From: Elusimicrobiota bacterium
Lineage (GTDB): Bacteria > Elusimicrobiota > Elusimicrobia > Elusimicrobiales > UBA9959
Assembly: GCA_037137395.1 (NCBI GenBank)
Contig: JBAXKK010000007.1
Span: 1-50,158 of the forward strand
Length of the DNA stretch: 50,158 nucleotides
Direction of reading: 5' to 3'
In this document: piece after piece, positions 22,701 through 31,700 of the stretch
Layout: each line of letters starts with the position of its first letter
Position numbering within the stretch: the first letter of the stretch is position 1
Position numbers: made by a program

Positions 22701-25700
22701 ATTGTGCCTCTTGCTATCCCGCTGGTGGCCGGACCCTCCACTCTGACCACCATTATGATATTTTCACTGAAGGACCCCGGTGCGTGGCCGACCTGGTTGG
22801 CGATGGTGGGTATTTCCTGGGTGATAAATGTGCTGATCCTGAGCATGGCCTCGAAACTTTCAAAATTTCTTGGAGCCCGTGGTCTCCTGGCCATGGAAAA
22901 GCTGATGGGTATGATACTCATCACTATTTCGGTTCAGATGATAATGGTGGGGTTAAAGAAATTTATAGTGGGGTAAAAAGATATAGGGAGAATTTATTAT
23001 GGGCGAACACAAACCGGACAAAATTATTTATTCGATGGTGGGGGTTAGTAAATATTACGACAAAAAAGCCGTCCTTAAAGACGTTTATCTCTCTTATTTT
23101 TACGGGGCCAAGATAGGAGTGCTTGGGTTAAACGGTTCCGGTAAAAGCTCCTTGCTGCGCATTCTCGCCGGCAAAGATCAGGATTTTAAGGGCGAGACGG
23201 TTCTTTCCCCCGGGCATACCGTAGGAATGCTTGAGCAGGAACCAAAGCTTGACGATACCAAAACCGTGCGCCAGGTGGTGGAAGAAGGTGTCCCGGAAAC
23301 CATGGCCGCGCTTAAAGAGTACAACGAGATAAACGAAAAAATGGCCGAGCCCATGAGCGACGCCGCCATGAACGCTCTTATTGAAAGGCAGTCCAAGGTG
23401 CAGGAAAAAATAGACGCGCTGGACGCATGGGATATAGATTCCCGGCTTGAAATGGCTATGGATGCCCTCGGTTGCCCCGACGGCGACACGCTGGTCGGAG
23501 TGATCTCCGGCGGAGAAAAAAGGCGGGTCGCCCTCTGCCGGCTGCTCCTGCAAAAGCCAGATATACTGCTTCTTGACGAGCCTACCAATCATCTGGACGC
23601 GGAATCTGTGGCCTGGTTGGAACACCATTTAAAGGAATATAAAGGAACTATTATAGCCGTGACCCACGACCGCTATTTTCTGGACAATGTCGCCGGCTGG
23701 ATACTGGAGCTGGACCGCGGGCACGGCATTCCCTGGAAAGGAAATTACTCATCTTGGCTTGAGCAGAAGCAGGATCGCCTGCGTCTGGAAGAGAAGAGCG
23801 AAACTGAAAGACAGAAAACTCTGGCGCGCGAGCTGGAATGGATAAGAATGTCCCCAAAGGGACGCCGGGTTAAGTCTCAGGCCCGTATAACCGCCTATGA
23901 GAATTTATTAGGACAGAATAATGAAAAATTAGCCAAAGACCTTGAGATCTACATCCCTGCTGGCCCGCGGCTCGGCTCCGTGGTAATAGAAGCCGAGAAT
24001 ATTTCCAAAGCGTACGGCGATAAGATATTGATGGAAAACCTCAGCTTCAAGCTTCCGCCCGGAGGCATCGTGGGAGTCATAGGTCCCAACGGTGCCGGCA
24101 AAACCACGCTTTTCAAGATGATAACCGGCGCCGAGAAACCGGATTCCGGCTCTTTCAGGGTCGGAGAGACGGTAAGTATGTCCTATGTAGATCAGTCACG
24201 ATCGTCTCTGGATCCCGCCAAGAACGTCTGGGAAGCGATCTCCGGCGGGCTGGATATAGTTAAACTCGGCAAGCAGGAAGTGAACTCGCGGGCGTATGTG
24301 GCCAGGTTTAATTTTATGGGCCCGGACCAGCAAAAAAAAGTGGGAGAGCTATCCGGGGGAGAGCGGAACAGGGTGCACTTGGCCGTTATGCTTAAAGAGG
24401 GATCCAATCTTATACTTCTGGACGAACCCACCAACGATCTGGATGTTAACACCATGCGCGCGCTGGAAGAAGCTCTGGAGAATTTTGGAGGCTGTGCCGT
24501 AGTTATCAGCCACGATCGCTGGTTTCTGGACAGAATAGCCACACATATCATGGCCTTTGAAGGGGATAGCAAGGTGGTATGGTTCGAGGGAAACTTCTCG
24601 GAATACGAGGAGAACCGTCGCGCGCGCCTCGGCGCCGAAGCCGAGACTCCCCACCGCATAAAATACAGAAAACTTACTCGACAATAAAAATAGGAGGAGT
24701 CGGCGTGTTTTCTGTGCGCCCGGATTAATAAAAGGGCGTCCGATTAACCGGACGCCCTCTTTTTTAAGGAAATGTAATTATTTGTCGTCCAAGCCGGCTT
24801 TAAGGATCTCCACGGCGCGGTCGGCGTCGGAGACATTGATGAGGATGCGGGCGGTGTTGCCGCCCAACGCCGTCCCGTAAACCGTAGTTATATTAATGCT
24901 GTTCCCCGCCAGTAGTTTGGCCAGGTTAAGAAGTTCTCCGGGCTTGTCGGTCAACTCAATGGAAATCATGGGGGTTTCAACGGTTGTGAAACCGGCGCTA
25001 GTGAGGATATAACTTATCTTCTTTTCCGTGTCCACGGTAACACGCACGACGCCGGAATCGTCTCGAATCTCTGAGGCAATACCTATAATATTTATTCCCT
25101 CGTTAACAAAAAGCTCTATAAATCTGCTGAGCGCTCCGGGGACATTGGGAAGAAACACAGTGTACTGACTGACAATTTTAACCGACATAGGAATCTCCAT
25201 CCCACGCTAAAAGCTATAACTAATGTAATAAACTTTACCCGAAGGTAGCAACAGGGAACTATTGATATTATATAATTGGTTTGGGTGTGACAGCGGTCCC
25301 GGCGCAAAAAACACAATGGAAAACAAAAAATCGGCTCTGGTAAGTGTGGTCGCGTGGGCCTTTATAATATTCGGGGGTTGGCACGTCGCCCGCGCGGCGT
25401 ACGATAACTTCACCCTGGCGGCAATGTTCTCTTCACCAGGGTTCATGCTGGGGTTGGCTGGCGCGACTATACCGGTGGAAACACCGCCGCTGGCTCGCTT
25501 TGCTGTGGCGCATATAAGGATGGTATTCGTGTTTTATTTATTCGCCTCTCTTACAGTGTTGATCGCTGGGGTGGGATTGTCATTTCGGAAAGCCTGGGCG
25601 TTGAATTCTTCTAAATGGTTTTTTTACATCAGTGCAGCATGCTGTCTGCTCATTTTTCTTTTTCCGGGACTGCTTATTCCTAAACCCTACATATACGCCG

Positions 25701-28700: not shown

Positions 28701-31700
28701 GCGCCGAACGGCGACATCCTGCCCTGCTCAAGCTATCCCAGGCCGATGGGAAATATACTGGAACATAAAGGAGCGTTCCGCGAGCTGTGGGAAAGCGGTC
28801 CCTTTAAATTTTTTCAGGAAAAAGGGTTCACCCATGAGATCTGCCGGAAATGTGAAGATCTCGCCGTCTGTAACGGAGGCTGTCCCCTTTACTGGGAGAA
28901 AGCCGGCTACGGCGAATTAATAAAACATAACGAGGTGAAAAATGGCGCTGTTTCCTCCGCCCGATAAAGACGGGCAGATAAAATTTATTATCGCTAAAAG
29001 TCTGCCGTACAAGCCGCGCATGGCTTTGATAGCCGGGCTTTTGTTGGCGGGCCTGGGCCTTGAGGTCGGATTTTCTTTCTGGGCCGGTCTGGCGGTCCTG
29101 CTCGCCGCGTCCCTGTTCGGCATGGTGCAGGGTTATGACGCCACGCCCCGGATCGCGGGCGCGCAAAAGTGGGAGCGGGTTACGCCGGACGAATACACGA
29201 AGATTAAATTAAAGGCCGACCAGCTTAAGCGCTGGGATGAGGATATGTTTGACATCACCAATACCACCGGAGCGCTGGTGTTCGTCGCTATTTTCATTCT
29301 CTGCGTGGGCATATACCTGGCACTGGCCGGCACATTCGGTTTCCCTGTCGGCTACTGTAATTTAGTGGGGATTAACGCGGCCGTTCTTATCGCGCCGCTC
29401 TGGTTCACCGGCGTGAAGGAGTATCTGCGTAAAGACCGGCTTATAATCAAAATAAATCTTCTTGAGGGCGTCATGAGGGCTCTGACCCCGCTTAGCGAAG
29501 TTCAGGTGTTCCCCATGCTGGCCCTTGCCGAGACCAGCGAAGGGAAGCAAGACCCCGAGGACGCCCGGCTGCTGATAAATCTGGTAGGAGCCCCGGCATC
29601 GTTCTATGGCGTCCAGGCTCAGATCTCCATAAATGGCGTGAAGGGGCAGGATTTCCCATATCTTTATTGCGTGCTTATAACTAAAGCGGGGTCCGGCCTG
29701 CTTGACGGCTATGAGCGGTTTATGGCTAAACCCAGTGAATCTTCAGGCATGATTTCTGATTTTTTTATGAGGTTTGTAAATCCCGGCCAGAAGCTGGTTT
29801 ACGAGGCGCAGAAAAACCCGGACGCCGACATCCTTGTAATTCGTCAGCTTGCCGAGAAAAACAGGGGCTACTCTACCGGGCAGAAGGAAGCGGACGCGAT
29901 AGTCTCAGCATCGCTGGAAATGGCTAAAAAGCTGATCGGCGGCAAGGGCCCCGACGCTGTTTCTTAACCTGAATCCTGCAACTCAGTCTGCGGGATTCCC
30001 CACGCAGTGGGCTGAGGGCCCAGCACTATGCGCGCCTGGCCCGACGGGGTGAGGCCCGGCTTTAGAACGAGGCATAATTATGCCTCGCGTCCGGACCGCA
30101 AGGCCGCAGGTGTTTCCCTGCGCAGCGAAAACACCGAGGCGGGGTCGCGCAAAACCGCTATGCGGCTTATGCGTGACTATACCTCCCAAACGGGCGCCTG
30201 CTATGCGGGCGGAAAGTTGCACCTGCAACTTTCAGGTTAGTATAATTGTTTATCGGACTTTCGGAGGCGAGCATGTGGAATTACACTGAAAAAGTTTATG
30301 AGCACTTTAAGAATCCCCGGAATGTCGGTGAAATAGAGAACCCTGATGCCGTAGGCGAGGTCGGCAGCATTATCTGCGGCGACGCTCTTAAGCTTACGCT
30401 CCGGATAGACAAGGCCGCCGATAAAATAACTGACGCCAAGTTTAAGACATTCGGCTGCGCGTCGGCCATAGCCTCTTCATCCGCTCTGACCGAAATGATA
30501 AAGGGTAAGACGCTGGCGGAAGCGTCCAAAATAACAAACCATGAAATAGCCGAATACCTCGGCGGCCTGCCCAGCGAGAAGATGCATTGTTCGGTTATGG
30601 GCATGGAGGCGCTTGAGGCGGCCATAAAAAATTACCGAGGCGGAAAGGCGGAGAAAGTTATTCTTGACTCGGGGGAACGCCTGGTGTGTAAATGCTTCAG
30701 CGTGACCGAGGGAAAGATCTTAAGAGCCATAAAGGAAGAGAGCCTTAGGACGGTTGAGGAAGTTACAAATTTCACCAAGGCCGGCGGCGGGTGCCGCCAG
30801 TGCGTGGGCGAAATAGAGAAAATACTTAAAGATTACTGGGCCCGGGCCGAACATAAAACCTTCGCCAAAATGACCGTCGTGGAGAAGGTTAAGATGGTTG
30901 AAAAAGTTCTAGCCGAAGATGTTAATCCAAAATTGAAACTGGACGGCGGGTGGATAGAACTTGTTGATCTGGACGGCGATAAAGTCAAGGTGCGGTTCCT
31001 TGGAATGTGTTCCAGCTGCCCGTCTTCTTCCGCCACGCTCAAAAATATAGTTGAAAAAGAGCTGAAGGAAAAAATAGATCAGGCGCTGATAATTGAGGCG
31101 CAGTAGCGCCTCAATGATCGCCATAGGCTTTAGGCTATAAGCCATACGCAGGAACCGTAAAGGAATTTCCTTATATAAGGCCTACGGCTTAAAGCTTATA
31201 GCAATCGCAGTAGATTACGAGAAGGATTTTTATGGAAAATGATAAGGTTATATACCTTGATAACAATGCCACTACCCGCGTGGCGCCTGAAGTTGCCGAA
31301 GAAATGAGGCCGTTTTTCACTGAATTGTACGGCAATCCATCTAGCATGCATTTTTTCGGCGGCGGCGTGCAGAAGCATCTGGATGCTGCACGCCGGAAAG
31401 TGGCTGAGCTTCTGGGAGCTTCCCCGGAGGAGATAATTTTTACCAGCTGCGGCACCGAGTCTGACTCCACCGCTATCTGGTCGGCGCTGCGCGCCTACCC
31501 GGACAAAAAGCATATCGTTACCACCAAAGTTGAGCATCCCGGAGTGCTGAATGTGTGTAAATTTCTTGAGGCCCAGGGGTACCGCGTTACCAGCCTACCG
31601 GTGGACGGAGAAGGCCGCTTAAACCTGGAAGACCTTAAAATCGCAATCACTCCTGACACCGCGCTTGTTTCCATAATGTGGGCAAATAATGAGACAGGGG

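Follow-up and report, generated by a model that had tools for sequence, protein, structure and literature searches.

Radical enzymes of the RiPP type have been described almost exclusively on short peptide substrates. In Haft's CXXX (TIGR04115/TIGR04117), ACGX (TIGR04340) and His-Xaa-Ser systems, as well as in TvgA/TvgB, tandem short repeats are encoded beside a radical SAM maturase, and TvgB is reported to modify a four-residue repeat (PMC9062424). In the NxxcB system the bond runs from a Cys sulfur to the Cβ of an Asn that precedes it (PMC13361665), and on proteins thioethers are installed by CrpC and QhpD, the validation of RiPP-type modification on large proteins being limited to few named cases (PMC13692751). 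For the DUF2207 membrane proteins one functional study was found, which deals with stress tolerance in Streptococcus mutans (PMC10457818).

Here we describe a cassette (Table 1) that points to a putative, undescribed route to the chemical modification of a membrane-protein tail. It lies in a stretch of 50,158 nucleotides from an Elusimicrobiota bacterium (contig JBAXKK010000007.1), which is called the window.

Table 1. Features of the cassette and its surroundings, in window positions
Feature	Positions	Strand	Description
g00432	25316..25849	+	small membrane protein; lineage-restricted neighbour, not core
g00433	25867..27531	+	554 aa; DUF2207-like single-pass membrane protein; putative substrate
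g00433 ectodomain	25945..26676	+	residues ~27-270; beta-sandwich
g00433 transmembrane helix	26719..26775	+	residues 285-303; hydropathy 2.61; followed by KHK
Tail C-(H-x-A-C)7-VSSGH	27427..27528	+	g00433 residues 521-554; putative core for modification
g00434	27612..28967	+	RRE-radical SAM-SPASM; 451 aa from ATG 27612
SPASM cysteines C340-C424	28629..28883	+	candidate AuxI: linker C340, C354, C372, C424; candidate AuxII: C411, C414, C420
g00435	28942..29967	+	core partner; ~four membrane helices + cytoplasmic alpha/beta domain
nifU-nifS	30273..32434	+	local neighbours, outside cassette

A three-gene cassette and its distribution

The conserved core consists of g00433, g00434 and g00435. Among the best 80 of 411 GTDB enzyme loci, the tail gene lies upstream in 76 and a g00435 homolog is present in all 80; in the remaining four the tail gene is on another contig, three of these loci ending at a contig edge, and the genome of L057 carries the complete tail in trans, on a contig other than that of the enzyme. 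The enzyme loci span 14 labelled bacterial phyla, with many uncultured bacteria, and there are Asgard-archaeal relatives. Tail gene and enzyme were positive in identical genomes in three sets (4 of 201 in Elusimicrobiota, 9 of 251 and 5 of 151), and in a tail-anchored scan of 120 metagenome stretches, 75 of which end a frame in a genuine tail, the tail sits on this membrane protein in 44 of the 45 with enough upstream DNA and is accompanied by the enzyme in 36 of the 39 with enough downstream DNA. Within 41 spirochaete relatives the membrane protein occurs in 15 and the enzyme in 14. The odd genome (G494) has a tail-less orthologue, 94% identical to a tail-less clade (P0244) and preceded by an upstream gene common to tail-bearing orthologues; no enzyme was found in it, an absence that weighs little because the genome is only 1.3 Mb and the gene is cut by a contig end.

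Overall, the coupling between tail gene and enzyme is near strict and the cassette is patchy but broad, bearing in mind that the genomes in these counts are not independent and that 411 loci were narrowed to the best 80. The genome-wide survey's note, from which this analysis started, had recognized the coupled pair; its reading left out a third core gene, the wide occurrence of the cassette and its second subtype, and the rarity that it reported (3 of 151 genomes) applies within Elusimicrobiota and does not extend to the many other phyla. Most of the support comes from gene neighbourhood among related genomes, and at two tail-bearing loci the enzyme was not seen close by (within 2.5 kb at L107 and within 4 kb at L160), as would be expected of genes that are simply inherited together with no enzyme-substrate relation. 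Such mere co-inheritance is very improbable, given that the coupling persists across phyla, gene-order shuffles and one split in trans, and that tail loss coincides with absence of the enzyme in one lineage.

Of the flanking genes that had been listed with the pair, only g00435 belongs to the core. A homolog of g00432 is found in 20 of the best 80 loci, all closest relatives, while nifU comes after g00435 in 20 of the 69 loci whose downstream flank is 1.5 kb or longer, 17 being labelled Elusimicrobia and the other three only "bacterium", at 68-69% enzyme identity; the suggested link to NifU/NifS is not supported, these genes being local neighbours. Neither a protease or transporter/exporter nor heme or cofactor genes were found among the conserved neighbours of the best 80 of 411 loci. 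No Pfam or NCBIfam family passes for g00435, which is modelled with a pLDDT of 88.8 (AlphaFold2). Its predicted alpha/beta domain (residues ~165-338) resembles class I type III secretion chaperones and YbjN, many of which match at Z 6.0-7.4 (VIA), under the caution line of Z 8; the best of them is Spa15 (Z 7.4, rmsd 3.2, 114 aligned), and Foldseek gave no match at E<=0.001.

The membrane protein and its repeat tail

g00433 combines a signal-peptide-like helix at the N-terminus, a beta-sandwich ectodomain (AlphaFold2 pLDDT mostly 86-96), a single strong hydrophobic segment and a helical cytoplasmic domain. The positively flanked end of the transmembrane helix (Table 1) suggests that the C-terminus, and with it the tail, is cytoplasmic. 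By Foldseek, the ectodomain matches oligosaccharyltransferase subunits and M1-aminopeptidase chains over ~230 aligned columns, at a whole-chain TM of ~0.26. In two loci (L051, L077) a TPM domain stands in its place; the membrane body keeps invariant motifs, and ectodomains are swapped within a LemA-TPM operon. As a member of DUF2207, g00433 falls short (PF09972 17.9 bits against a gathering cut-off of 24.4, the best tested homolog reaching 24.1), and the term "DUF2207-like" refers to the similar architecture; nor is it a TIGR04222 protein (16.1 bits against 43, with a weak match region at residues 338-440). In a separate comparison, the helical domain scored 0.89 in the Atlas against DUF2207_C clusters, which we take as a lead only.

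The tail is predicted to be disordered (pLDDT 31-41) and closes the protein. In a six-frame scan of its own genome it is the sole period-4 array of at least five Cys that ends a long ORF, the other period-4 matches being a simple repeat in the DNA at the end of contig C52 and a 40-aa frame on C152. The protein and its Cys/His tail are as the survey had described them, except that the eight tandem repeats counted there are seven full C-H-x-A units followed by an eighth Cys and VSSGH. In the window and 76 relatives all 560 tail units read C-H-x-A, and their synonymous codons vary, both Cys, both His and all four Ala codons being used, which places selection at the level of the protein. Conservation is much higher in the tail than in the body: the median identity of the tail is 94% in the 19 loci where the body is less than 36% identical.

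The register of the repeat was read from 178 distinct tails with 1358 His. A Cys at +3 accompanies 1352 of them; 63 have this Cys and none at -1, and the reverse is never seen, so that the unit is H-x-A-C and not ACHX, as first named, the insertion variants behind this register coming from few lineages. Positions 1 and 3 of the unit are fixed (Ala at position 3 in 1343 of 1358) and position 2 is variable. In the leading units Tyr or Phe may replace His, and Gly is often found at position 3, being tolerated between the aromatic residue and Cys; no variant among the 178 tails separates Ala from the following Cys. Two tails retain a Gly-rich terminus after the repeats. The 474-aa homolog cited earlier as tail-less (P0022) ends before the pre-tail region and may be a fragment, and tail-less homologs that seem full-length exist in Treponemataceae (P0244 cluster). 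The in-frame TGA attributed to the G054 copy may have an ordinary explanation: in L002, likened to G054 by matching identities (enzyme 85%), the tail has three units, and the TGA that comes right behind its terminal His serves as the stop codon of the gene. An identical H-x-A-C repeat is also present on a 144-aa precursor in an unrelated cluster of four radical SAM enzymes (L156), which score best on the DynA, DarW and AmcB models.

The body of g00433 could in principle be an oversized leader, from which the tail is cut after modification to act as a free RiPP. The disordered, terminal position of the tail and the short repeat-bearing precursor of L156 are in keeping with this; the lack of a protease or transporter among the conserved neighbours and the invariant body motifs and ectodomain swaps, which suggest a function of the body's own, render it improbable.

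The radical SAM/SPASM enzyme and its candidate chemistry

g00434 may also start at a GTG (27546, 473 aa), its close homologs having 451-452 aa. Both PF04055 (90.6 bits against 29.5) and the SPASM model PF13186 pass the Pfam cut-offs. The CxxxCxxC motif (125/129/132) keeps all three Cys in 119 of 119 homologs, as do C354, C372, C411, C414, C420 and C424, with C340 in 118. Compared with the SPASM motif CX9-15GX4C..CX2CX5CX3C..C (PMC6231123), the first six Cys are invariant, the terminal one is missing and the linker C340 is extra; E435 is conserved in at least 95%. By motif position, four Cys would belong to AuxI and three to AuxII. A further triad, C136, C138 and C357, is present in 101, 83 and 98 of 106 enzymes of the main subtype and in none of the 13 of the second. 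At the N-terminus PF05402 (PqqD) does not match g00434 itself; it passes in the homologs P0094, P0101 and P0315, whose N-termini align with that of g00434, which is on this basis RRE-like.

That g00434 stands outside the curated maturase families is confirmed: its NCBIfam rows are headed by the heme-synthesis enzymes AhbD (148.8/500) and NirJ2, PqqE gives 119.5/381, and the closest solved relatives are SkfB and PqqE. The proposed sisterhood with Haft's ACGX system is not upheld, TIGR04340 ranking 18th (89/400), no tandem ACGx array occurring in six frames of the genome and the unit being H-x-A-C. The CXXX system (TIGR04115 27.8/350; TIGR04117 15.8/50 for the last 62 residues of g00433), the triceptide synthases (YhhB 33.3/445; FxsB, GrrM and XyeB outside the best 25 rows, below 76.8 bits, for cut-offs of 310-450) and the ranthipeptide or protein thioether synthases (TIGR04463 54/525; SCIFF, PapB and QhpD outside the best 25 rows) gave no family match either. 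Sequence clustering in this SPASM subfamily does not predict function (PMC6231123), a warning that weighs against the cross-linking proposed below.

Metal-binding His/Cys tails usually tolerate variation. The H-x-A-C tail fixes Ala and spacing, which speaks against a tail that is not covalently modified and serves as a Cys/His metal or Fe-S scaffold, with the enzyme building or loading a cofactor or acting on a small molecule like AhbD/NirJ. For such a scaffold one can adduce the top scores of AhbD and NirJ2, which do not act on peptides and thereby count against cross-linking, the fact that Cys and His are metal ligands and the triad kept in the main subtype and missing from the second; an RRE serves to bind peptides, no heme or cofactor genes are conserved beside the best 80 of 411 loci and nifU/S is only local, so that we regard the scaffold as rather unlikely. 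The RRE-like N-terminus seen through homologs and the near-strict coupling make it most likely that the SPASM enzyme acts on the tail of this full-size membrane protein, as the survey had proposed, the NifU/NifS and ACGX parts of that proposal being dropped.

We consider it probable that the enzyme cross-links each tail unit in the cytoplasm. g00433 would span the membrane, the beta-sandwich facing outward and the tail lying in the cytoplasm; the RRE of g00434 would bind the stretch preceding the tail, and the enzyme would cleave SAM and, judging from the chemistry of its family, form in each H-x-A-C unit a single oxidative cross-link (-2 Da). The chaperone-like g00435 might, most plausibly, hold the unfolded tail or tether the enzyme at the membrane. 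The single likeliest bond, proposed tentatively, is a four-residue thioether between the sulfur of Cys and the Cβ of the His that lies three residues before this Cys, a bond of which no radical SAM example was found in the literature examined.

This thioether is ranked slightly above C-C chemistry, in which every H-x-A triplet would carry a cyclophane from His-C2 to Ala-Cβ of the kind made by HaaB (PMC11499958). The cyclophane would keep the Cys thiols free and rigidly arrayed as ligands for metal or Fe-S, and it appears less likely than not by some distance. It directly accounts for the near-invariant Ala, and this counts against the thioether: H-x-A, with its variable position 2 between fixed positions, fits the aromatic-X-X triceptide motif. 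The Cys pattern of g00434 likewise disfavours the thioether, suggesting that AuxI is fully ligated, as it is in SuiB, which forms C-C cross-links, and opposite to CteB and CrpC, which form thioethers (PMC6231123, PMC13692751); the model scores of the L156 enzymes, encoded with an identical repeat, also favour the cyclophane. Against it stand the distance of g00434 from the triceptide synthases, the Ala that is never separated from the following Cys and the frequent Gly at position 3 of leading aromatic units. Other radical chemistry on the tail is about as unlikely as the cyclophane.

Since no protease or exporter is conserved beside the best 80 loci, the product of the preferred cross-linking probably stays on the protein, where its imidazoles or thiols would be lined up as a rigid ladder on the inner face of the membrane; its preferred role, a speculative one, is transition-metal binding or buffering in an envelope-stress complex of the DUF2207/TPM/LemA type. 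A bolder and doubtful version is an ancient maturation system common to bacteria and Asgard archaea, in which a membrane-anchored chaperone holds the cytoplasmic tail while seven to ten Cys-His thioether rings are built on it as a ladder, the result being an element tethered to the membrane that binds metal or signals. If the proposal is true, the tail of an integral membrane protein as target would widen the class of RiPP-type radical enzymes and may bring new His chemistry; it would also offer a first biochemical handle on the DUF2207/TPM/LemA envelope complexes, links that may give access to a family still lacking a known biochemical function.

Comparison with known systems

Parts of the cassette have published precedents (QhpD, CrpC, TIGR04222 tails). 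The repeat-peptide systems of Haft and TvgA/TvgB resemble it in layout and differ in their short precursors and, for the former, in the family scores given above. The His-type triceptide enzymes HaaB, HtkB and YhhB are rSAM/SPASM enzymes that cross-link a His-x-Ala motif; they belong to another clade, act on short precursors and have described motifs without an invariant Cys (PMC11499958). The beta-thioether of NxxcB links the Cys sulfur to an upstream Cβ within a four-residue motif, the spacing kept in the g00433 tail, whereas its precursor is short and streptococcal and its acceptor is Asn, the two being compared by description only (PMC13361665). DUF2207 (YciQ-like) proteins share the signal peptide, beta-sandwich, transmembrane helix, helical cytoplasmic domain and low-complexity end, but g00433 and its tested homologs stay under the Pfam cut-off.

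A close likeness is with CrpC/CrpA (TIGR04463 family; PMC13692751) and QhpD/QhpC, which pair an RRE-rSAM/SPASM enzyme with seven SPASM Cys and a protein-sized substrate with C-terminal Cys repeats, the third gene perhaps being a chaperone. CrpA is, however, described as a 28.8-kDa protein whose repeats are 17 residues long and whose Cys comes before the acceptor, where g00433 is a membrane protein of 554 aa with H-x-A-C units, and CrpC is assigned three Cys at AuxI and four at AuxII, the reverse of the split suggested for g00434, with the TIGR04463 score of g00434 well under its cut-off. In TIGR04222 membrane proteins a low-complexity Cys tail has been proposed, as here, to be the substrate of an adjacent RiPP-type enzyme, in that case an MNIO (PMC12452194). 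Their tails are irregular, Ser/Gly-rich and predicted to be periplasmic, and the coupling is loose, the MNIO missing from a third of genomes; by contrast, the tail of g00433 is regular and probably cytoplasmic, and its coupling to the enzyme is near strict.

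A Cys/His repeat tail on a membrane protein

The tail gene g00433 encodes a protein ending in seven C-H-x-A units, followed by an eighth Cys and VSSGH. The genome-wide survey's note had described eight repeats, a count that does not stand; the tail itself does, and a scan of the own genome found no second long ORF closing in such a Cys array. The units of the window tail vary among themselves at synonymous sites, and in 76 relatives, found with a pattern that fixed only the Cys spacing and demanded one CH, each of the 560 units is a C-H-x-A, and every synonymous codon is in use. 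The tail is, moreover, 87-94% identical in 19 of 64 full-length relatives with a body less than 36% identical. Judged from this synonymous variation and from a tail identity far above that of the body, the repeat is selected at the protein level.

The register of the repeat can be read from 178 distinct tails, in which Cys occupies position +3 of His in 1352 of 1358 cases and position -1 in 1289 of 1358. A Cys at +3 without one at -1 is seen for 63 His, the opposite pattern for none; by these counts the ACHX register of the survey's note, and CHxA with it, was dropped, and the unit is H-x-A-C. Insertions in the tail are located exclusively between such units. Position 3 is Ala for 1343 of 1358 His. 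In leading units Tyr takes the place of His, in 41 cases with Ala at position 3; other leading units read Phe/Tyr-x-Gly-Cys.

We infer that the tail is cytoplasmic from the order of the segments of g00433 (see table), with one hydrophobic helix preceding KHK, the helical domain and the disordered end. The beta-sandwich structurally resembles oligosaccharyltransferase subunits, which we take to be ribophorin I, and M1-aminopeptidase chains, presumably in the aminopeptidase N-terminal domain; the helical domain shows a weak resemblance to TIGR04222 and DUF2207_C, below threshold in both cases. In two loci, L051 and L077, the ectodomain of the tail protein is a TPM domain, its gene sits after LemA and three TPM genes, and the repeats continue into a Gly-rich end resembling that of the upstream TPM protein. 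This swap of ectodomain shows the partner travelling with the enzyme to be the tail-bearing inner module and not the ectodomain. A cluster of three 622-aa proteins (P0251) has a g00433-type ectodomain and transmembrane segment fused to a g00435-like region, the tail being absent; P0187, a single record that may be chimeric, resembles this fusion. The tail is also found intact in two loci with a broken membrane-protein gene, L068 with a frameshift and L069 with a stop codon in frame, either of which may be an assembly error.

Coordinates of the features and loci discussed
Feature	Location	Strand	Remarks
Tail gene g00433	25867-27531
g00433, start			signal-peptide-like
g00433, beta-sandwich			pLDDT mostly 86-96
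g00433, hydrophobic helix	residues 285-303		single; KHK directly after
g00433, after the helix			helical domain, then disordered tail
Inverted repeat, then T-run	24733-24765		between ABC-F gene and convergent ACT-domain gene; likely intrinsic terminator
Region searched with Rfam	24600-30400		0 matches
Other rSAM/SPASM gene, own genome	C44:15331-16536	-
Frame with His-x-Ser triplets, own genome	C61:11580-12017 (L267:4581-5018)		146 codons
Metagenome cluster L156	213-6700	-
Locus L051	1338-6616
Locus L077	2123-6941

Coupling of the tail gene, the enzyme and g00435

Searched separately, the membrane protein and the enzyme mark identical genomes in the own phylum (4/201) and in the phyla to which a spirochaete locus (9/251) and a Gemmatimonadota locus (5/151) belong; the counts include each centre genome, and related genomes in them are not independent. 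Of 41 genomes related to G494 (spirochaete relatives), 15 have the membrane protein and 14 the enzyme, the odd one being G494, whose copy shares 94% identity with a cluster of tail-less proteins 500-501 aa long. Because G494 is a small genome and its gene is truncated at a contig edge, the joint loss of tail and enzyme is only suggestive of coupling.

A tail-anchored metagenome scan gave at least 120 stretches, 75 of which were kept as genuine tails; 45 of the 120, excluded from the count, were chance repeats, tails that were cut or frameshifted, and three precursors ending in GSRGWR. Where the upstream DNA spans at least 900 bp, 44 of 45 genuine tails belong to a g00433-type protein, and where at least 1.5 kb is available downstream, 36 of 39 are accompanied by the enzyme, the misses being L107, L160 and L159, the last itself a DNA repeat scored as a miss. 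In a viral scan, 22 stretches fit the tail DNA pattern, none of them with the membrane protein, the enzyme or the partner, and they look like simple DNA repeats. A 12-nt repeat with a tail-like translation in short frames, the cassette being absent, occurs in L159 and L222-L224 (viral-collection and metagenome contigs) and is probably non-coding.

From the side of the enzyme, a GTDB scan gave 411 relatives; in the best 80 of these 411, a g00435 homolog is present at every locus (80/80) and the tail gene lies directly upstream of the enzyme in 76, the remaining four having it elsewhere in the same genome (for L057, with the full tail read). The flanking gene g00432, with a homolog in 20 of the 80, was dropped as a core gene. 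The Fe-S link to nifU/nifS proposed in the earlier survey fails as well, because nifU follows the cassette in 20 of the 69 loci whose flank is long enough, all of them among the closest records, which mostly carry an Elusimicrobia label. The order is altered in L136, L146, L161, L162 and L181, where the tail protein, with about ten units, is followed by the g00435 homolog; the enzyme comes third in L161, L162 and L181, where the contig extends that far. The predicted fold of g00435 is confident (pLDDT 88.8), and its C-terminal domain gives a family-wide but middling match to type III secretion chaperones and YbjN (Z 6-7.4); Foldseek returned nothing at E<=0.001 and the Atlas search unnamed clusters only.

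A quick tree of 54 enzymes, which serves phylum labels and the subtype split only, carries labels of 14 bacterial phyla, with one enzyme in a cluster named Polyangiaceae. L112, a locus with a tail protein and a weakly g00435-like gene, has an enzyme that groups with a cluster bearing the name Candidatus Helarchaeota; the tail-bearing protein of L107 shares 52% identity with a protein from a cluster bearing the name Candidatus Thorarchaeota, and no enzyme lies within 2.5 kb of it. By sequence, these two loci are taken to be Asgard-archaeal relatives. A branch with support 98 separates off 11 rows as a second subtype (L096-L098, L102, L105, L108, L123, L128, L140, L143, L147), in which g00435 is replaced by a downstream gene of about 400-430 aa with weak zinc-ribbon matches in two of three scanned; its tails have mostly five- or six-residue inserts, and C136, C138 and C357 are absent in 13 of 13 of its enzymes.

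The enzyme and the putative modification

Profile searches identify g00434 as an rSAM/SPASM protein and, as the survey's note had it, fitting no curated maturase family, since it passes none of the curated maturase models. Its N-terminus is RRE-like, PqqD being above cut-off in three of five scanned homologs. Across 119 homologs, the most distant at 36% identity, six SPASM Cys never vary, the linker Cys C340 is kept in 118 of 119 and the terminal SPASM motif Cys is absent, a pattern which, with the SPASM motif as defined in PMC6231123, suggests an AuxI with four Cys, as in SuiB, and an AuxII with three. Enzyme and body identities are correlated (rho 0.91), as expected from shared ancestry, and the correlation is given no weight. 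Complex predictions of g00434 with residues 425-554 of g00433 scored 0.00 in both runs, the partner fold being uncertain, and likewise carry no weight as evidence. Another rSAM/SPASM gene of the own genome, on C44, gives that genome's best score on TIGR04463, the CrpC family (189.6 bits; cut-off 525).

The enzyme probably modifies the tail, and two published chemistries fit the pattern. A Cys-S to His-Cβ thioether, by analogy with the bond that NxxcB makes to an upstream Asn Cβ (PMC13361665), is favoured by the His-to-Cys spacing, which is never broken, and by aromatic units tolerating Gly, and is a tentative candidate. A cyclophane such as that of HaaB, reported to link His-C2 to Ala-Cβ (PMC11499958), is favoured by the unvarying Ala and by an AuxI resembling that of SuiB and seems rather unlikely, as does some other chemistry. 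The scores on the models tested place the enzyme in neither family.

In L156, a metagenome cluster unrelated to the cassette, four rSAM/SPASM genes flank a precursor of 144 aa that starts like a signal peptide and closes with H-x-A-C units and GSRGWR, an ending shared by L196 and L217; the top models of these genes are DynA, DarW, AmcB and anSME, none near its cut-off. The same units in an unrelated cluster suggest that the H-x-A-C repeat has been used more than once as an rSAM target. The C61 frame, with about 27 His-x-Ser triplets at its end, lies between rSAM genes and has the look of a His-Xaa-Ser system.

Comparison with known systems

The cassette is real and conserved, and is undescribed in the sources searched, with most subscription journals and bioRxiv supplements outside their scope; it might be listed in unsearched supplementary tables. 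Radical SAM, SPASM and DUF2207 do not occur together in that literature, subscription journals mostly aside. The portion of PMC9062424 covered, in which TvgB modifies a four-residue repeat, does not list the cassette, and the tail motif has no match in its supplements (all but one file) or in those consulted of PMC13692751. Among the parts of other papers covered, PMC10457818 ties a DUF2207 protein to stress tolerance, and PMC9012708 and PMC10989515 are background only. Protein substrates are known but few, as judged from the part of PMC13692751 covered, where a Cys-repeat protein of 28.8 kDa receives thioethers from CrpC, and QhpD is cited. The Cys-rich tails of TIGR04222 membrane proteins have been proposed, unproven, as MNIO substrates, a pairing in which the coupling is, unlike here, loose (PMC12452194, in the part seen). 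The cassette would be a form of RiPP-like protein modification, with putative chemistry and function, rather than a separate category.
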